A DNA stretch of 64,000 bases from a virus, in IMG/VR virus record IMGVR_UViG_3300030333_006551, positions 32,001 through 96,000 of that record; one strand, 5' to 3'. Made by a program: the position numbers and the translations under genes. The notes under the pieces were generated by a model that searched no databases, was not told the origin of the DNA, and was given only the letters and a program-made list of their open reading frames with translations. Positions 4,328-16,390 of this stretch are shown in pieces. Within the stretch, counting starts at the first letter, position 1; the number at the start of each line of letters is the position of its first letter.

Positions 4328-4586
4328 ATTACCCCTAGACCAAAGAGCTACCCAGATCCATGAAAGGATGGGATTTCATTGGGACGCTCTGTGTAATGCT
4401 GCTTCTGAGTTGTACGCATTAGAAGAACACTATGATCTGCGTGAGGACTCTATCCAGATGATAGAAGAGACTTACAACAGTATGTATGAGCAACTTCAAA
4501 ACTTGAAGTACGATATTGATGACGCTGAGAACTGGATGTTCAATGGCTACAGCCTACAGGAGATTGATGAAGATGAAGAAGTATGA
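4308..4586 (+). CDS. acidic hypothetical protein
   Basis: ORF in packed run. Confidence 0.5.
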   Translation: MFMPHSKLPLDQRATQIHERMGFHWDALCNAASELYALEEHYDLREDSIQMIEETYNSMYEQLQNLKYDIDDAENWMFNGYSLQEIDEDEEV

Positions 4587-9696: not shown

Positions 9697-9788
9697 GAAC
9701 AAAGTCCGATTTATTTAGAACCCGTTGTCGTAAGTCCTTGTCGATTCTACACTTATGGCGGGACGGGCCGCCCCGCGAAGGGGGAAAA

Positions 9789-9986
9789 TCAAGTCTTTTC
9801 TGGGTTTTTTCTAATGGGGGAGCATTGTTCGTCACAATCGTCACACCAGTAGGAATCCAATCTTTGCAGCCAAGAGGCTTTGTCCTCAAATCCGACTTCA
9901 TCGCGAGCACCGAGGGCATTCATAGGGAGGAACATGCTCCACTCTTGGCTCACATTCTCCCCGTTACACTTTTCACATATCCACAT
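9789..9986 (-). CDS. small Zn-ribbon protein
   Basis: CEKC...CDDC; GGGGGA RBS upstream. Confidence 0.6.
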   Translation of the reverse strand: MWICEKCNGENVSQEWSMFLPMNALGARDEVGFEDKASWLQRLDSYWCDDCDEQCSPIRKNPEKT

Positions 9987-9994
9987 GATTCCCC

Positions 9995-10636
9995 CTAGTG
10001 AGATAGGAACTTGACGGTCTTTTGAGTGGTCCAGCATAGCGCACAGTCAGCACAGCTCTTGACCTTTCCAGTTTGCTCAGGGCAAACAAAGTGCTCACCC
10101 TCAAAGGATTCATCCGCAGCGAATAGGTGGTCCGCAGCATACGCTTTGTTCCGAGAGAATCGGATCACACAACGCTCAGAGAATCGGTTGTTGATGAGCC
10201 AGATGCGCTCACCGATGATGCTATCCTCTTCTCTAGCCGTATAGCCAAAGAGAGCCAGCTTGGGATATTCAAGTAGCATCTCTTCCCAGAACTTCACATA
10301 GTCCACAGAAAAGAAATCACCTAGAACATGCAGACGGATCACGATACCGTCCTTGTGCTTTTCCATGAGCTTATCTATCTCACGATGCAGAAAGAGGTCG
10401 ATGTTCTGGATCTTATAACGGTGTGCGAATGGCATGTTATCACCGTAGCAGTCGTTCCAATGATGGCAGGACTCGGGGCAAGTTGTCCTCTCTTCTAGGG
10501 TGAGAGAATATAGACGCTTCCCTGCCCACTTACCACGGGTAATGCGGAATCCTAGCTTTTTGTTGTTTGATCCAGGCTTGAGGAGACCAGTCCTAGGGTC
10601 CCGCAAGCTCTTCTGATATCGGCTCTTAGTCTTCAT
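9995..10636 (-). CDS. Gp88-like phage protein (Cys-rich, radical-SAM-related fold)
   Basis: TCPxxCxxWxxCY, IRLHVLGDF, FGYT, CPEQ...CADCALCW. Confidence 0.8.
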   Translation of the reverse strand: MKTKSRYQKSLRDPRTGLLKPGSNNKKLGFRITRGKWAGKRLYSLTLEERTTCPESCHHWNDCYGDNMPFAHRYKIQNIDLFLHREIDKLMEKHKDGIVIRLHVLGDFFSVDYVKFWEEMLLEYPKLALFGYTAREEDSIIGERIWLINNRFSERCVIRFSRNKAYAADHLFAADESFEGEHFVCPEQTGKVKSCADCALCWTTQKTVKFLSH

Positions 10637-10643
10637 GGCGTAC

Positions 10644-10672
10644 ATTATATCAGGTCATCAGGGGTATTGCAA
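10644..10672 (-). promoter_or_regulatory. sigma70 early promoter (leaderless)
   Basis: TTGCAA-17-TATAAT, 7 nt to ATG. Confidence 0.8.
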
Positions 10673-10767
10673 CACAAAACAGGAAAAACTTTTCGCCGTA
10701 AGTGCTTGTGGATTCTACACTTACACGCGAACGCGCCGCCGCGCAAATGCGATTTGCAAGGATAAAA

Positions 10768-10848
10768 TGGTGGAGGTGCAGGGAATCGAACCCTGGTCCG
10801 AACGAGTGCCGTGTAGGCTCTAGCCCGTCGAAACTCCTTTACACCCCC
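10768..10848 (-). ncRNA. ssrA: minimal tmRNA: tRNA-like domain only, no mRNA-like domain
   Basis: GGGGGTG-TAAAGGAGTTTCGAC...GAC-CAGGGTTCGATTCCCTG-CACCTCC-A-CCA: acceptor stem with G3:U70, stemless D-loop ending TTCGAC, T-arm, encoded CCA. Confidence 0.8.
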
Positions 10849-11190
10849 AAGGTAGGGTGGGCTAGATGTCGCCACCTAGCCAACTGGCCCGAGTTCAGAA
10901 CTCTTGCACCATCACCCCGAAGGGCGGGAGGCCACACTCAGCGGAGTGTTTCCGTTTACCATCTCTTTATAGGTGTGGCCTCCCTGCCTGTTCCCGAAGG
11001 CTACTCGCTTTCTTTTACTTCGTCCCTGATCAAAGGGCGAAGGTGGGGAGGGGGCTAGGCATAAAGTTTGCGATCACCCCTCTCCGAAGGTGGGGAAGGG
11101 GATAGGCTTCTATGGTTTGCATCACCCCTCCCCGAAGGTGGGGAGAGGTAGCAAGACGGTAAACCGCACTTTTACATGCTACCCCTCCCC
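10849..11190 (-). ncRNA. structured RNA / tandem hairpin array upstream of the mini-tmRNA
   Basis: Repeated GGGGAGGGG-loop-CC(C)TCCCC stems joined by ACCTTC linkers; 11-bp loop-loop complementarity. Confidence 0.6.
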
Positions 11191-11196
11191 GATCAC

Positions 11197-11418
11197 TCAG
11201 CTAACCCCTTGGGTAGCCTTGTGGGCAGCCGTAGCTCCCTGATGCCTACCTGTCCACTCATCGGTGGGAAGAAGGCGACGAAGAGACTTGTAAGCCTCAA
11301 GCGCATGGTCAGACTCGTAAGAGCCCTGCTTCCAGAGGTCAGCGAACAGTTCGCCAACTTGAACGGAAAGACCTTGAATTTTGGCCTCCGTGGTGTTGTA
11401 CTCAAAAGATGAGCGCAT
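11197..11418 (-). CDS. hypothetical early protein
   Basis: GAGGA RBS before ATG at 11418; promoter TGGACA-17-TATAAT at 11489-11517. Confidence 0.55.
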   Translation of the reverse strand: MRSSFEYNTTEAKIQGLSVQVGELFADLWKQGSYESDHALEAYKSLRRLLPTDEWTGRHQGATAAHKATQGVS

Positions 11419-11527
11419 AGTGAAATCCTCTTGCAAGAGAGAAACTGAAGTGGGAGTAACTAACACAGACTCCCGATCTGTGAGCCCTATTATACCACGG
11501 GCTAGGTGGATTGTCCAGCGAAAAACG

Positions 11528-11836
11528 CTAGAAATAATACTCATCGGTTCCCATCCCAGCAGAGCCTAGGGCGTCATCATCAGCCCACTCATTGTCCCAC
11601 GGGTCAGACTCAGGCTCCTCCTCACCTCCGAAAACCTCATCTTGGCAGGACTGGCACATACCAGAGATCTGGTACTCCTTGCGGGACACATCATCCCTAA
11701 AGGATGTTGCAATGATGCCTTGGGCATCACAGGTTACACATGTGCCCTCACGGACACAGGTGGCACGGTCCTTGCCGTTGAAGATGATTTCAGAGAGGAG
11801 GGCGTCGATCTGCGGTGCTTTGTATGTCGGTTCCAT
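11528..11836 (-). CDS. Zn-finger early protein with acidic tail
   Basis: CVTC...SGMCQSCQD; leaderless promoter TTGATC-16-TATAAT at 11844-11871. Confidence 0.7.
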   Translation of the reverse strand: MEPTYKAPQIDALLSEIIFNGKDRATCVREGTCVTCDAQGIIATSFRDDVSRKEYQISGMCQSCQDEVFGGEEEPESDPWDNEWADDDALGSAGMGTDEYYF

Positions 11837-12052
11837 GGAGACCATTATACCAGAACACAGGGGCGGATCAAGAGAAATTTTGAGAAACTTTTTGGCCTAA
11901 GTCCTTGTCGATTCTACACTTACGGAGGTTGCCGCCGTCGCCCAATCGGCCAATAGAGGCCAACTGAGGGGGGTTATTAGCTGATTCGAGCGTCTAACCA
12001 CATGAAAAGGAGCCCCATGCAGTAGACGAAGAGGATGAACCAGTAGGGACCT

Positions 12053-12382
12053 TCAAGCATTTCCGCGCATCTCTCTACCTTCTTCGGTGAGGGAGAACTT
12101 GAACTCCTCATCCTCGTCACACCAAGACATCTGCATAATGCCATCGTCCACCAGTTGAGAGAGGGTGAGGTCGATCTGGTGACTACCTGCCCTCTCTGTA
12201 ACTTCAGAGAGAAGCTGCTGAGAGCCTTCAGGGAAATCACGCAGAGCCATACGAGCAGCCCATTCGGAAAGCTCTCCAAGCTGGCCCGTGTAGGGCTGGC
12301 CCTCGATGTTCCACTTCTTCATCTCATCCGTGACGGGAGGATGATCGGGGATGGTGATGTATTCAGGTGTTTCAGGAAACAT
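12053..12382 (-). CDS. hypothetical early protein (possible winged helix C-terminus)
   Basis: LSQLVDDGIMQ...FSLTEEG. Confidence 0.55.
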   Translation of the reverse strand: MFPETPEYITIPDHPPVTDEMKKWNIEGQPYTGQLGELSEWAARMALRDFPEGSQQLLSEVTERAGSHQIDLTLSQLVDDGIMQMSWCDEDEEFKFSLTEEGREMRGNA

Positions 12383-12587
12383 AGGGAGGCTCCTCCATGT
12401 ATGAGAATTCTTTTTTGAGTTCGATCAGTTCGACAGCCTCAGCCACCTCAGCAGCGCAGAAGCCATCCCAGTACATCTCTGTCGCCAGAGGGCCATGCTC
12501 CACCATGTCGATACCAATCGACTGGCAGATGCGTTGAAACTCAGAGAGCTTCATTTCGAGGAAAGTATCCATCAGGAAAGACTCCAT
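12372..12587 (-). CDS. hypothetical early protein
   Basis: Overlapping operon arrangement. Confidence 0.5.
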   Translation of the reverse strand: MESFLMDTFLEMKLSEFQRICQSIGIDMVEHGPLATEMYWDGFCAAEVAEAVELIELKKEFSYMEEPPYVS

Positions 12588-12763
12588 TCAGGGGTTGCGT
12601 TGTTTGCGTCAGCTTCCAGCTTCTCAGCCAGCTCCTCAGCGTAAAAGGTTTCGAGGTACTGCCTAGCCACCTTCTCAGGGTCAGGGCAGGGGAGGTTATT
12701 GTGATTGGTGGAAGTAAGGACACCGCAGAGATGCCAAGCGAACACATTGTCCGACAGTTCCAT
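12572..12763 (-). CDS. hypothetical early protein
   Basis: MELSDNVFAWHLCG... Confidence 0.5.
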   Translation of the reverse strand: MELSDNVFAWHLCGVLTSTNHNNLPCPDPEKVARQYLETFYAEELAEKLEADANNATPEWSLS

Positions 12764-12780
12764 AGCGAGATTGAAGTAGC

Positions 12781-12924
12781 TCAAGCTACGACCTCGAAAG
12801 GGATGTCCCACACTCCGATAAGACCACGGAAGTAGGAGAGGAAGGAGGTAAGCTCAGACGCATCGCAGCGCACAAGCTCGTCACCCGTGTAGGGATTCTT
12901 GAGGAGGTATTGAGTTGCTTTCAT
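12781..12924 (-). CDS. small early protein (47 aa, leaderless)
   Basis: ATG 7 nt after TATAAT of promoter TGGACA-16-TATAAT (12932-12959). Confidence 0.6.
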   Translation of the reverse strand: MKATQYLLKNPYTGDELVRCDASELTSFLSYFRGLIGVWDIPFEVVA

Positions 12925-12973
12925 GGTGTCCATTATATCAGGTTTTTGGGAAATGTCCAGAACTTTCTGGGAT

Positions 12974-13099
12974 TTATTTGCTCGCGTCGTAGCAGGGCTG
13001 GCAGATGAGGAGAGCCCACACTAGGCTATCGACCATGTGGGAGAGGGGGAATCGTCGGTCACAGCAGATACAGCGGACCATGTTGTCTTTGTCGCTCAT
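12974..13099 (-). CDS. small Zn-finger protein (41 aa)
   Basis: MSDKDNMVRCICC...ICQPCYDASK. Confidence 0.5.
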   Translation of the reverse strand: MSDKDNMVRCICCDRRFPLSHMVDSLVWALLICQPCYDASK

Positions 13100-13243
13100 A
13101 CATGTATAAGGGGCAAAACTCGGCAAACCGAAGGTGATTTCTCTGATTTCTTTTGGGTAATCCTAAGGTTTTTTTCGACCTAAGTGCTTGTCGATTCTAC
13201 ACTTACAGCGGGAGCTGCCGCCCCGCAAAATGCGGCTGTCAAC

Positions 13244-13611
13244 AAAAAAACCCCTCGTTCGCAACCTTTTCTTTCCATGGATAAGTGCGTAGAAAAGAAG
13301 CGGGGCGAACCAGGGGCGAGAGGAAAAGGGAGAGAGAGGGACAGGGCTTAATGTATTACCTGCAAGGCTCCATGTTACTGGTTCTGATCACCTACGACAA
13401 ACGGCTATTGCCTTGACCATACCTCACGGATTTCCGCATCGGGTTCTGGCCTGTCTGCACTAGAGAGCAACAAAACTCTTATTATGCGACCCGCATCAGG
13501 ATGCCTCCCGATGCCTCTCCGAATTTCCAACCCCCTGAGAAGGATATCACTCCTCAGAGGCGCTCTGGGCCTAATGTCTATTTATACTCGCCCAGACGAG
13601 TGCCTAGCGTC
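13244..13611 (-). ncRNA. candidate structured ncRNA ending in a terminator-like hairpin + U-tract
   Basis: ORF-free ~370 nt with several nested stems. Confidence 0.45.
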
Positions 13612-13830
13612 CTAGGCAGTTAGGTAACGGTGATTACCCTTCGCCACATACTGGCGAGAACGCTTGTACTTGCGGTTCCAAGCGGACTTGGCTCCAGCAA
13701 GGGTGCCAACGAAGCTGTTGCTCCGTGTCGAGAGGTCGAAGATGGTGTAGACAGCGTTGCTGTCCGAACCAACCCGAACCATGACCGCGCTCTGGTTTGA
13801 GCGCACGATAGAAGTGATGTTGTTGAGCAT
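13612..13830 (-). CDS. hypothetical early protein
   Basis: AGGAGA RBS; promoter TTGACC-17-TATAAT at 13869-13897. Confidence 0.65.
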   Translation of the reverse strand: MLNNITSIVRSNQSAVMVRVGSDSNAVYTIFDLSTRSNSFVGTLAGAKSAWNRKYKRSRQYVAKGNHRYLTA

Positions 13831-13893
13831 TTGCTCTCCTAGTAAGGGGTTTCGTTGAATGAGGGGCCATTATACCATGACCCCCCATGAAGG

Positions 13894-14286
13894 TCAAGCC
13901 TCAAGTGCGAGAAAAACATCTTCCTCGCTGATTTCCTTTCCGCTTGCAATATCCGAAGTGAGAGTAGACAAGGCAGCACGAAGCGCAGCCTTACGAGCCT
14001 TAGACACAGCGATCACCTTCTCAGCGTTAGCCTTCGCATTCTCAATAGATGCGATACGGGCCTCCGCCTTGGCGATGCGGGTGTCGAAGTTCTGCGGACC
14101 CTTAGAGAATCCTTTACGAGCCATAAGCTCGACCTTCTCAACCTCCTTGATCTCCTGAAGGAGAGGGGTGAGAAGCGGGTTAGATTTGGCCTCAGTCTCG
14201 GCCTGTTTGGCTTGCAGCTTGGCAAGCCGCGCCTCTGTCTCAGCGATAAGCTGATCGGGCGTTTTGCGTTTACGGGTTTCGTTCAT
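13894..14286 (-). CDS. coiled-coil early protein (leaderless)
   Basis: Ala/Lys/Glu heptads; promoter TTGATC-16-TATAAT at 14294-14321. Confidence 0.7.
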   Translation of the reverse strand: MNETRKRKTPDQLIAETEARLAKLQAKQAETEAKSNPLLTPLLQEIKEVEKVELMARKGFSKGPQNFDTRIAKAEARIASIENAKANAEKVIAVSKARKAALRAALSTLTSDIASGKEISEEDVFLALEA

Positions 14287-14410
14287 GTGGAGCATTATAT
14301 CATAATCTGGAACGAGATCAAGACCTAATCCAAAGAAATATCGGTCCTAACCCCTTGTGGATTCTACACTTACGGCCAGCCGCGCCGCCCACCCAAATGC
14401 GACATGCAAG

Positions 14411-14474
14411 AAAAAAAGGGGAGAGGATTGATGAAAGGTAGAGCCAGTAGCCTAACCTGAGGCCCCCTCCCCCC
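14411..14474 (-). terminator. large-loop GC hairpin followed by T7
   Basis: GGGGAGGGG...CCTCTCCCC-TTTTTTT on the minus strand. Confidence 0.5.
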
Positions 14475-14479
14475 GAATG

Positions 14480-14803
14480 CTATGCCTCCATCGTGTTCCA
14501 CTCATCGTGGAGGTGGGAGTTCACGCAGATATCACGCTCGATACCTAGGCCCATGGGGAGACTGAGAGACTGAAGCTCAGAGAGGCTGAAGTAGCCCCAC
14601 TCTGCGCCACCGAAGCCCAGATCCACACGACCGAAGAAGAGCCAATCGCCCTCTGCATTCTCGGAGCCTTCGTAGACTTCCCAAGTGCCCACACCTACAG
14701 GGTTGAAGAACTTGACCACGATCTCTTTCTGATCGGTGGGGATGTCTTCGGTGGAGTAGAGAGGGGGAAGAGCCTTCTTGATTTTGTCTGTGAGTAGTTG
14801 CAT
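14480..14803 (-). CDS. DUF2958-family protein
   Basis: LPPLYSTE...VVKFFNPVGVGTW...FFG.VDLG...EWGYFSLSEL...GLGIERD. Confidence 0.85.
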   Translation of the reverse strand: MQLLTDKIKKALPPLYSTEDIPTDQKEIVVKFFNPVGVGTWEVYEGSENAEGDWLFFGRVDLGFGGAEWGYFSLSELQSLSLPMGLGIERDICVNSHLHDEWNTMEA

Positions 14804-14894
14804 TAGAGAATACCTATAAGGGTGAGAATTGCGCCACTTGTGATGGCAAGAAAGAAAATTGCGCCTTCGATGGCGTCTCGTCTTGATCGGGTCA

Positions 14895-15104
14895 TTATCC
14901 GCGCTCCTTGTCGTTCCAGAAGTCTGCCCAGATCTCGCGCTCTTCACGCGCAAGCTCATCGCTGAGGTGCTGATACCAATCATCGTAGTCAGCATCTCCC
15001 ATCTCGGACTCGTCAGCCATGGCCTCTAGGACTTCGCGCTCCTCACGCACATCGTCCACCATGTCTCCTAGGATCTCGTTCCATTCTGTGCTGTGCTTGA
15101 TCAT
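14895..15104 (-). CDS. acidic early protein (leaderless)
   Basis: Promoter TTGCAG-17-TATAAT (15111-15139), 6 nt to ATG. Confidence 0.65.
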   Translation of the reverse strand: MIKHSTEWNEILGDMVDDVREEREVLEAMADESEMGDADYDDWYQHLSDELAREEREIWADFWNDKERG

Positions 15105-15128
15105 GGGTGTATTATACCTTGTTTGGAG

Positions 15129-15368
15129 TCAGTCTGCAAGAAATTTCTTGCGAATTTGGATAGCTCCACGGTGGTCCTGCCACTCACGCAGCAGTTCGTT
15201 CACCGTGATATCTTTGTCGAAGTGGATATCTTCCCAGACTCCACCTTCCACCTGCATTATCTCATGAGCAGAGGCTAGAGCCCCTGCATAGGTCATATGG
15301 AGGGTCTGAACCAGAACACCTTCATAGTCCTCACGAAGCTCAACAGTGTAGATTTCTCTGTTTTCCAT
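15129..15368 (-). CDS. hypothetical early protein (leaderless)
   Basis: Promoter TTGCCT-17-TATAAT (15375-15403), 6 nt to ATG. Confidence 0.65.
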   Translation of the reverse strand: MENREIYTVELREDYEGVLVQTLHMTYAGALASAHEIMQVEGGVWEDIHFDKDITVNELLREWQDHRGAIQIRKKFLAD

Positions 15369-15540
15369 GCGTGTATTATATCAGGACTAGGCCCTAGAGG
15401 CAAGTACAAAGCATGATTTATATTGAGACATCCTAAGCACTAGGAATACCCAATGTTTGGCGGAGGATTTCGCAAAGGACTATAGGATTCCCCATTTGCG
15501 CCACCCGTATACATCGTACAAGTATTTCTAAGTTAACACT

Positions 15541-15614
15541 AAAAAAATTTTCAAAAAAAATTTTCAAAAAAATTGGACTTAGTTTTTGGGACTCCTAATT
15601 TGTTGGGACTCCTA
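15541..15614. repeat. tandem A7-8/T4 tracts and duplicated TGGGACTCCTA at the strand-switch point
   Basis: aaaaaaattttc aaaaaaaattttc aaaaaaatt ... tgggactccta x2. Confidence 0.8.
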
Positions 15615-15623
15615 TATAACTAT

Positions 15624-15998
15624 ATGAAAGCATACGAAAAAATTTATAGGTTTTTAACGGAAGACACCCCATCTAAAACTGAGGTTTCTGTTAAGAAGGC
15701 TTTAGGTTGGAAAACAAGACCTGAAGATGATCCCAACATCGATCCAGGTACAAAAAGAGTTAGAATTCGAAAACGCAAGAAACAAAGACTTGGATCTATT
15801 CTAGCTACGGGGGGCGTAAAAAGACTTGCAAGAAAGGCTAAGAGTTCAGTTTACACTGATACTGAAGCAGAAGCAGTAGAGCACATGCTTAAACATAAAA
15901 AGGAACAAGGAAAAAAACGAAAGGCAGAAAAAGCAGAGGCTTTCGCGCGAACGAAAGCATTTACGTCTGGATCTTATCCACAACAAAGAGGTAAGTAA
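15624..15998 (+). CDS. basic protein, YExIYxxLTE-leader family
   Basis: MKAYEKIYRFLTE; K/R-rich; CTATATA upstream. Confidence 0.7.
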   Translation: MKAYEKIYRFLTEDTPSKTEVSVKKALGWKTRPEDDPNIDPGTKRVRIRKRKKQRLGSILATGGVKRLARKAKSSVYTDTEAEAVEHMLKHKKEQGKKRKAEKAEAFARTKAFTSGSYPQQRGK

Positions 15999-16390
15999 TG
16001 AACGCATACGAAAGAATTTATACATTGTTAACAGAAGCTAAAAGCCCAGCTTCTCATGGCGCAGATGTCTTTCATAAGAAGCTAGGTAATGCTGGTCCTG
16101 GAGAGACCAAAAGAGCCGAGGCTGCTCTTAAAGCCAGCAAGGAAGCAACGGAGCGAAGAAGAAAAAGACAGGAAGCAGTTAAGTTTAAAAGAGGTCAAAA
16201 GATCTTTGGAAAGTACAAAGGATTTGTTCCTGGCACACCTGAAAGTAGACCTACTGCTGCATCAGAACCAACGAAACCTCGTATTAAGGGAGGGCATCAA
16301 GATTGGAGTTATAAAACCACTACGACCAAAGGTGGGGAAAAAATTAAGTGGAAGAGGCTTGGAAATAGTGGTCAATGGATTAGAGCATGA
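15998..16390 (+). CDS. basic protein, YExIYxxLTE-leader family
   Basis: MNAYERIYTLLTE. Confidence 0.7.
   Translation: MNAYERIYTLLTEAKSPASHGADVFHKKLGNAGPGETKRAEAALKASKEATERRRKRQEAVKFKRGQKIFGKYKGFVPGTPESRPTAASEPTKPRIKGGHQDWSYKTTTTKGGEKIKWKRLGNSGQWIRA

Follow-up and report, generated by a model that had tools for sequence, protein, structure and literature searches.

A modular, structured, non-coding spacer joins a small gene to a message-less mini-tmRNA in a family of phages

Many phages are now found to carry message-less forms of transfer-messenger RNA (mini-tmRNAs), whose presumed effect is interference with host ribosome rescue. What, then, is the run of stable hairpins that lies directly in front of one such RNA, between the stop codon of a 73-amino-acid (73-aa) gene and the first base (G1) of the mini-tmRNA, at positions 10849-11196 (minus strand) of the viral DNA analyzed here? 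This DNA, the window, comprises 64,000 nt, bases 32001-96000 of the 129.9-kb IMG/VR virus record IMGVR_UViG_3300030333_006551, and its close DNA relatives occur in marine metagenomes. A sequence-only reading had taken the array for tandem hairpin units with shared linkers and kissing loops, apparently co-transcribed with the mini-tmRNA and processed into small RNAs, and thus for an undescribed multi-part RNA system. We find that it is one, expanded, allele of a conserved RNA region of modular build that accompanies phage mini-tmRNAs and had not been described before. This region is a structured, non-coding spacer, with a definite anatomy, constraint at the RNA level and varying numbers of hairpin copies, that joins the small gene to the message-less mini-tmRNA. 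Read along the minus strand, the parts of the unit are the following.

11489-11517, minus strand: sigma-70-type promoter, TGGACA and TATAAT separated by 17 nt, with TG; 11 of 12 matches
11197-11418, minus strand: conserved 73-aa gene, its stop codon 6 nt before H1
11140-11190, minus strand: H1, an A-type hairpin, GGGGAGGGGUAGCA / UGCUACCUCUCCCC, with 14-nt arms 93% complementary and a loop that carries GUUUACCGUCU; also in locus L047 and in DNA sequencing run X2
11092-11133, minus strand: H2, an A-type hairpin followed by ACCUUC; also in loci L054-L057
11045-11085, minus strand: H3, an A-type hairpin and paralogue of H2; in the window only (1 of 98 sources)
11018-11042, minus strand: B, a hairpin whose tip varies on an invariant CUUCG/CGAAG base
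10985-11017, minus strand: C, a small GCCU/AGGC hairpin with the loop UCGGGAAC, preceded by the invariant purine linker UAAAAGAAAGCG
about 10926-10985, minus strand: D (H4), 17-nt arms 88% complementary, internal loop CUAUAAAG / CUGA, apical motif GAUGGUAAACG
about 10854-10918, minus strand: E (H5), an optional Y-shaped module preceded by GCCCUUC
10849-10853, minus strand: ACCUU, the end of a pyrimidine-rich leader before G1
10768-10848, minus strand: mini-tmRNA consisting of the tRNA-like domain alone; G3-U70 present, CCA encoded (Rfam, 63.6 bits, E 1.3e-23)

Folding and inverted repeats place all five hairpins of the sequence-only reading (H1 to H5) on the minus strand where it had put them, and H1-H3 do share one stem type. 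The linkers it noted are also present: ACCTTC follows H1, H2 and H3 (11134-11139, 11086-11091 and 11039-11044), GCCCTTC follows H4, and ACCTT precedes G1. Its list omitted B and the linker with hairpin C, which lie between H3 and H4. The units of the array are not equivalent but belong to five or more types of module. A 48-nt tandem repeat (2.3 copies, 83% matches) underlies H2 and H3. The minimum free energy (MFE) of the 348-nt stretch is -155.3 kcal/mol, against -125.4 ± 5.6 for dinucleotide shuffles (z = -5.3; 0 of 100 as good).

Relatives were collected through the neighboring GP88-like protein and then by alignment of the small open reading frame (ORF). Viral contigs gave 11 and 17 loci, and the best 80 of 341 relatives on metagenome contigs were examined. 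The order ORF-spacer-mini-tmRNA was found by script in 71 loci and occurs in at least 7 more with T-loop variants outside the search pattern; only L018, L019 and L020 have a long downstream sequence without a mini-tmRNA. The small ORF, spacer and mini-tmRNA travel together among these relatives. The 71 loci hold 58 distinct spacers of 37-348 nt, of which that of the window is the longest; they begin 6-8 nt past the stop codon and finish 5-7 nt ahead of G1. MFE folds contain 1-9 hairpin loops per spacer, and the number of hairpins across relatives runs from 0 to about 9. Differences in spacer length are mostly not multiples of three and no reading frame is conserved, so the spacer is non-coding. 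A hidden tag frame, like that of a tmRNA message domain, starting from the conserved GCG after the A-rich linker was considered and rejected, since frames and stop positions differ by eye between variants.

The spacers are mosaics of recurring parts. Module A, to which H1-H3 belong, is a hairpin 6-8 nt past the stop codon with arms GGGGAGGGG / CCUCUCCCC and a freely varying tip that is a UUCG tetraloop at its smallest (L024, L025, L050 and others) and reaches 53 nt. Its 5' arm is almost fixed and its 3' arm drifts between C and U, with G-U pairs common at positions 5-9, a pattern that is the signature of an RNA stem on the minus strand. Relatives with a single unit have one arm on each side, 5' and 3', for which a hairpin is the only possible structure, and changes in one arm are matched by changes in the other (GGCGGAGGGU/ACCCUCCGCC in L027, GGGGAGUGG/CCACUCCCC in L117 and GGGGAGACC/GGUCUCCCC in L013). 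The minimum commonly present is a single stable hairpin: the shortest hairpin-bearing spacers (37-38 nt, L024 and L025) comprise only a 10-bp G/C stem with a UUCG cap, whose closing pair changes from U-A to C-G between the two.

Modules B and C were described by a joint covariance model, which finds 62 matches in 98 sources, one per locus and all on the sense strand; a single match, weak and partial (22 bits, L025), lies outside a spacer. The resulting alignment is model-guided and so leans towards the model; in it 96.8% of cells are paired, and both sides have changed in 6 of 9 pairs (0 of 500 shuffles). From the raw MAFFT alignment, in which the tips of B-C were misaligned, RNAalifold had recovered no more than the invariant B base, and the model-guided alignment was used in its place. 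Module C is a hairpin of 4-6 bp after UAAAAGAAAGCG with GGGAA in the loop, and its stem occurs as GCCU/AGGC, GGCU/AGCU, AGCU/AGUU, GCCCCU/AGGGGC, GAGCU/AGCUC and GAAGGA/CCUUC. For module D, 14 distinct long-form sequences give 12 pairs, 5 of them compensatory, with 99.4% of cells paired; none of 500 shuffles does as well and no slid register comes close. The D tip motif is found in 30 of the 58 spacers and missing from 28, the B-C anchor is missing from 14, and a D-like tip is found inside B in L050, L065 and L069. Module E recurs only in L047 and L075. As judged from these alignments, B, C and D are shown to be under constraint of both sequence and structure, which therefore points to a specific role, such as that of a protein or nuclease site. 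The comparison with homologs, which the sequence-only reading had named as a check, thus finds stems conserved with compensatory changes.

Of the 58 distinct versions in the family, 44 fold more stably as the sense strand (mean difference 5.2 kcal/mol), but these versions are related rather than independent, so a p-value would not be meaningful. Comparison of the sequences places the RNA on the tmRNA (minus) strand through its G-U patterns and compensatory pairs, in agreement with the strand first proposed. Co-transcription with the mini-tmRNA, also proposed earlier, is probable from the layout: a promoter scan finds one promoter upstream of the small ORF (11489-11517) and no promoter-like site on the minus strand between it and position 10672, the hairpin array included, and the last hairpin ends 5-7 nt before G1. 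This promoter likely starts the ORF-spacer-mini-tmRNA transcript, and the copy of an intergenic repeat at 10697-10768 is likely its end. In a metatranscriptome run, a 167-nt contig of an L050-like spacer spans A to C; other contigs of the RNA runs cover the small ORF of relatives and, besides these, only the conserved T-arm region of the tmRNA, the uncovered parts being uninformative.

The ends of the hairpins had been likened to tRNA acceptor ends (CC-ACC). Four of the five hairpins do end in stem-ACC, although H4 ends CCC-GCC, and 29 of 51 units in the family have ACC after the 9-bp stem. However, this ACC is mostly the A-to-B junction: the ACCUUC after an A hairpin is AC plus the 5' strand of B, so that its second C opens the stem of B. 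The last seven bases before G1 read RCCCUUC in 30 of 58 distinct spacers, and L004 retains ACCCTTC though its spacer has no hairpin. The pyrimidine run before G1 is therefore the leader of the mini-tmRNA and not an acceptor end of a hairpin.

Hairpin sets vary among phages whose small protein is 88-99% identical to that of the window, in a comparison of loci other than L013, L050 and L075.

Window: H1-H2-H3-B-D-E
L047: H1-X-B-D-E
L054-L057: H2-X-B-D
L048, L049, L051 and L080: X-B-D

The near-identical phages thus differ in their hairpins, so the purine/pyrimidine arms and junctions are sites of duplication and recombination. A contig of DNA run X2 carries 33 other letters in place of 11051-11124, which is the L047 form, and L013, whose small protein is 95% identical, has a 75-nt spacer with the D hairpin only. 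In L009/L022 (L022, 1720-1880), a duplication takes in a hairpin and the ~25 nt that end the small ORF, giving two A-type hairpins with an ORF tail before each.

A kissing interaction between the loops of H1 and D had also been proposed. The complementarity itself is present, 11 nt between 11154-11164 and 10954-10964 with one G-U, and 11 bp is reached by 6 of 2000 shuffles of the loop sequences, so the match is rarer than chance in a test made after the fact. However, among the 30 distinct spacers with the D motif, only 2 (the window and L047, with the same H1) hold a complement to it of more than 6 nt in another part of the spacer, and the best complement in the other 28 is at most 6 nt long. 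The match is therefore lineage-specific, and covariation lends the kissing pair no support, because both occurrences are the same allele. In the nearest relative, L013, the D hairpin holds a sequence exactly complementary to the H1 loop, but H1 is absent. By eye, the reverse complement of the H1 loop resembles the D tip past the 11 bases; since the resemblance is wider than the match and modules move elsewhere, an inverted copy would be a simple origin for the match. H1-D pairing may matter in the lineage of the window. A search for loop targets in the phage's own genome gave nothing above chance, the best exact complements in the rest of the 130-kb genome being 10-12 nt, no better than for shuffles. 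What stands of the multi-part RNA system is a modular conserved RNA without an Rfam family; the system of kissing loops is not supported.

Several known classes of element were compared with the spacer. In Rfam 15, no family matches the array at E ≤ 10 on the tmRNA strand, the sole match in the array being a chance one on the plus strand (17.7 bits, E 1.2), and the spacers of 16 relatives give no match at E ≤ 5. Neither the tmRNA family RF00023 nor a degenerate mini-tmRNA is found by Rfam in 10849-11196 at E ≤ 10. A model of 44 mini-tmRNAs gives only matches of 5-12 bits to H1-H3, confined to the acceptor stem and equally weak on the plus strand, and a decayed mini-tmRNA was rejected. Compared with 45 mini-tmRNAs, H5 scores 17 (shuffle mean 17.2; 109 of 200 as good), and for B-C just 1 of 23 cores beats 59 of 60 shuffles, so neither was taken for a mini-tmRNA copy. 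A CRISPR mini-array or RNA anti-CRISPR, with CCCCUCCCC-ACCUUC-GGGGAGGGG as the repeat and the loops as spacers, was also rejected, because loop length varies between 6 and 53 nt and the two arms of a hairpin covary; no CRISPR direct-repeat family matches the window. Outside the family, the invariant 17-mer of B-C has at least 120 matches in bacterial genomes and 42 in viral contigs, which is chance level, and none of the matches listed has flanking hairpins. The junction pattern has 0 matches in viral contigs. The leader pattern occurs at 16 loci, of which 5 were already known, 10 are unrelated and 1, L039, is a look-alike: in this unrelated GC-rich phage, GGGGGAGGGG-UGAU-CCUCUCCCCC-ACCUUUC-GGGGG stands directly after a gene (~4520-4570, minus strand) and no tmRNA follows.

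Considered together, these data are best accommodated, at a rough probability of 45%, by a model in which the spacer is a structured 3' untranslated region (UTR) and leader that insulates and stabilizes a co-transcribed precursor of mRNA and mini-tmRNA, and that has been expanded here by duplication and recombination. From the anatomy of the locus, transcription would begin at the promoter upstream of the small ORF and continue across the hairpins into the mini-tmRNA. The mini-tmRNA would then be freed by 5' cleavage at G1, presumably by host RNase P, by analogy with an ordinary pre-tmRNA. On the upstream fragment, the G/C hairpins could block 3' exonucleases and so protect the mRNA, and they could prevent wrong pairing of the mini-tmRNA's G-rich 5' acceptor strand with upstream sequence during folding. 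The near-identical purine and pyrimidine arms and the junctions of the form CCCCUCCCC-ACCUUC-GGGGAGGGG would promote tandem duplication and unequal recombination, and thereby the three A-type hairpins.

Several observations weigh against this model. The 17 invariant bases CGAAGUAAAAGAAAGCG, the invariant GGGAA loop and the conserved GAUGGUAAACG are not explained by a plain stabilizer. The strong conservation of B, C and D is likewise unexplained by a leader, and this keeps alive the idea of a working domain taken up below. There is no hairpin at all in the spacers of L004/L011, L016 and L023, so hairpins are not essential to the module. The plus strand of the 348-nt stretch folds equally well (-155.4 kcal/mol, z = -5.1), and in the window folding energy alone therefore does not decide the strand. 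The H1-D loop match, rarer than chance, is treated by the model as a by-product. Finally, the four sequencing runs consist of contigs, in which RNA ends are not visible, and carry-over of DNA into the RNA run is possible.

By analogy with other phage transcripts, processing of the spacer into separate small RNAs, which the sequence-only reading suggested, is possible: RNase P would cut at the G after (A/G)CC(C)UUC, 3' trimming would proceed to ACC, and the loops would base-pair, with H1-D pairing as one case. According to the available text of PMC4919922, RNase P makes use of a 3' RCCA, and its substrates beyond tRNA include hairpin-like RNAs, phage regulatory RNAs among them; the C4 RNA of phages P1 and P7 is a real precedent. 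The roughly 12-bp helix from G+1 that characterizes its hairpin substrates is present, with stems of 9-14 bp plus inner pairs that all begin with runs of G, and the tips of A hairpins are swapped like cassettes between phages. A single-stranded 3' RCC(A) is ambiguous here, ACC following the stem in the counts given above; these counts and the rarity of the H1/D match in shuffles would fit such processing. However, the second C of this ACC is paired in B at the A-to-B junction, L004 keeps the leader motif hairpin-free, the loop match is confined to 2 of 30 spacers, the loops have no complement above chance in the remainder of the genome, and the minimal A hairpin has only a UUCG tetraloop and hence no loop to present. 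We therefore regard separate small RNAs as unlikely. The spacer, mainly B, C and D, could instead be the working domain of a larger mini-tmRNA particle that stays attached or associated, serving as a platform for the 73-aa protein, SmpB, S1 or Hfq, or as a regulator of folding or charging. That B-C is present once per locus on the sense strand, all but once within a spacer, and is more conserved than its surroundings would suit this role, as would the compensatory changes in D and the joint travel of small ORF, spacer and mini-tmRNA. The linker AGUAAAAGAAAG can be read as four A-R-N triplets, which we take to be an Hfq-type motif, as a candidate only. Nevertheless, 14 of 58 spacers do without the B-C anchor and 28 without the D motif, identical spacers stand ahead of different mini-tmRNA types (L048 and L049), no reading frame is conserved after GCG by eye, the similarity of B-C to the interior of the mini-tmRNA is not significant, and a long 5' extension is expected on general grounds to hinder the acceptor-end functions of a tRNA-like RNA. 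A working domain is on balance distinctly unlikely.

Two further explanations deny the spacer this kind of role. It could be a DNA-level element, recombination-prone palindromes of G/C runs left by cassette shuffling in a hyperplastic island and having no RNA function of their own. Five copies of a promoter/terminator-type repeat delimit the cassettes of the island, near-identical phages differ in the length and hairpins of the spacer, both strands of the window fold equally well, and shuffling PeSL cassettes are known in T4-type phages (available text of PMC2839356 and PMC4122927). We nevertheless consider this highly unlikely: the G-U asymmetry and the compensatory changes show selection on the minus-strand transcript, and an invariant single-stranded linker would be unexplained. 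Least plausible of all is that the hairpins are terminators or attenuators that limit read-through into the mini-tmRNA. The same type of stem with a U tract does make an ordinary terminator elsewhere, at 14418-14473 (seven T) and in L020, a locus without the tmRNA. In the array, the GC-rich stem-loops are present but none of the five hairpins has a U tract next to it, ACCUUC, GCCCUUC or ACCUU following instead, so the array is not a terminator. A terminator scan lists no minus-strand terminator-like site in 10849-11196, and termination would silence a mini-tmRNA that has no promoter of its own. A bolder proposal, also unlikely, is that of a new modular phage RNA family working with the mini-tmRNA. 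Its B-C-D core would bind a host or phage factor, its A hairpins would be processed at tRNA-like ends into stable small RNAs whose exchangeable tips target the host or rival phages, as decoys or antisense guides, and the H1 tip would regulate the core through the D loop.

The 73-aa protein aligns with 14 invariant columns (n = 24 sequences) and is predicted to form a helical hairpin with a basic tail (predicted local distance difference test score, pLDDT, 77); it has no Pfam or PHROG family, no Atlas match and no PDB fold at E ≤ 0.001. Some relatives have unusual mini-tmRNAs. In L054 (~1660-1720), the T arm is deleted and the acceptor strands are joined directly, the H2-X-B-C-D spacer being otherwise intact, and in L097 (1600-1680) the terminus reads CCACTT, not CCACCA. 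Identical 180-nt spacers precede clearly different mini-tmRNA types in L048 (1603-1683) and L049 (1080-1162), which argues for recombination at the leader/G1 junction.

The unit lies in a GC-rich island of the window (~10000-16000; GC 0.48-0.52, versus 0.35-0.45 in other parts), whose genes are on the minus strand, the remainder of the phage genome being mostly plus-strand. The promoter scan finds a sigma-70-type promoter for each island gene. Other features of the island are as follows.

9729-9800, 10697-10768, 11896-11967, 13179-13250 and 14346-14417: five-copy intergenic repeat, spaced ~1-1.3 kb
10697-10768, minus strand: the copy of this repeat (family D1, 5 copies) that adjoins the mini-tmRNA 3' end
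10626-10652, 11826-11852, 12914-12940, 14276-14302 and 15357-15383: repeated TATAAT promoter with ATG 6-8 nt downstream
13526-13601, minus strand: Pistol self-cleaving ribozyme (69.6 bits), directly after a small ORF
14418-14473, minus strand: A-type terminator hairpin, GGGGGGAGGGGG..CCUCUCCCC then seven T, which ends a DUF2958 gene

The intergenic repeat, of 72 nt or more, is laid out as a GC hairpin, a GUAAGU..ACUUAC hairpin and a T run, and separates the gene cassettes of the island. Because ATG sits just 6-8 nt past the TATAAT promoter, several island genes appear leaderless, an arrangement also seen in L006-L009. Rfam finds two RNAs in the island, the Pistol ribozyme and the match to the tRNA-like domain of tmRNA, and ARAGORN calls no RNA. 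Pistol recurs near the mini-tmRNA module of relatives (L004/L011, 6024-6115; L007, 2388-2451; L105, 261-349). Named phages give no DNA match, and the best matches of the neighboring GP88-like protein (36-40% identity) are to phages of Roseobacter, Sphingomonas, Ruegeria and Rhodobacter.

In this widespread marine family, of which metagenomes yielded 341 relatives, the mini-tmRNA never stands alone as a gene but forms the 3' end of a unit of small gene, structured RNA and tRNA-like domain. The structured part carries compensatory motifs without an Rfam match and is a hot spot of structural variation between near-identical phages. The unit thus offers a cloneable cassette for asking how phage mini-tmRNAs are made and controlled, and whether the hairpins do more than serve processing and stability.

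Among known systems, the downstream partner of the array is of the same kind as the tmRNA of mycobacteriophage DS6A, which consists of the tRNA-like domain (TLD) only, lacks a coding sequence and, expressed in E. coli, reportedly inhibits the tmRNA of the host (PMC4131195, PMC11915505, in the text available). That text mentions no structured upstream array or linked small gene for DS6A, whereas the present finding is the leader. Marine phages with full two-piece tmRNAs are known (available text of PMC9004378). Supplementary files aside, literature searches on mini-, truncated or TLD-only tmRNA, and on the Pistol ribozyme with tmRNA, brought up no account of a structured leader. The PeSL cassettes of T4-type phages likewise consist of regulatory stem-loops, repeated around the small genes of hyperplastic regions, where they drive shuffling (PMC2839356 and PMC4122927, in the text available). 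The likeness lies in the five intergenic repeats of the window and the cassette-like gain and loss; in contrast, the array sits inside one transcription unit and is without promoters. With the stabilizer hairpins of 3' UTRs and the stems of intrinsic terminators the array shares GC-rich stems directly after a stop codon, and its stem type with a U tract terminates another island gene. It differs in having no U tract, in its several tandem hairpins and in being followed by a functional RNA gene instead of the end of the transcript. Parallels also exist with substrates of RNase P, which in bacteria processes pre-tmRNA, pre-4.5S RNA and phage regulatory RNAs, as set out in the available text of PMC4919922. 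Like the hairpin substrates of this enzyme, the hairpins of the array start with G runs and have a possible RCC after them. The same text gives a phage precedent in C4 of P1 and P7, where RNase P releases a hairpin RNA from the transcript of an operon. In this C4 antisense precursor, in pre-4.5S RNA and in the leaders of pre-tmRNA and pre-tRNA, as in the phage unit, a tRNA-like RNA lies in a longer transcript and is to be freed at G+1. Leaders of pre-tmRNA and pre-tRNA, however, comprise a few bases, whereas here the leader is 37-348 nt of conserved modular structure, cleavage is predicted, and the ACC is partly buried in the next stem.

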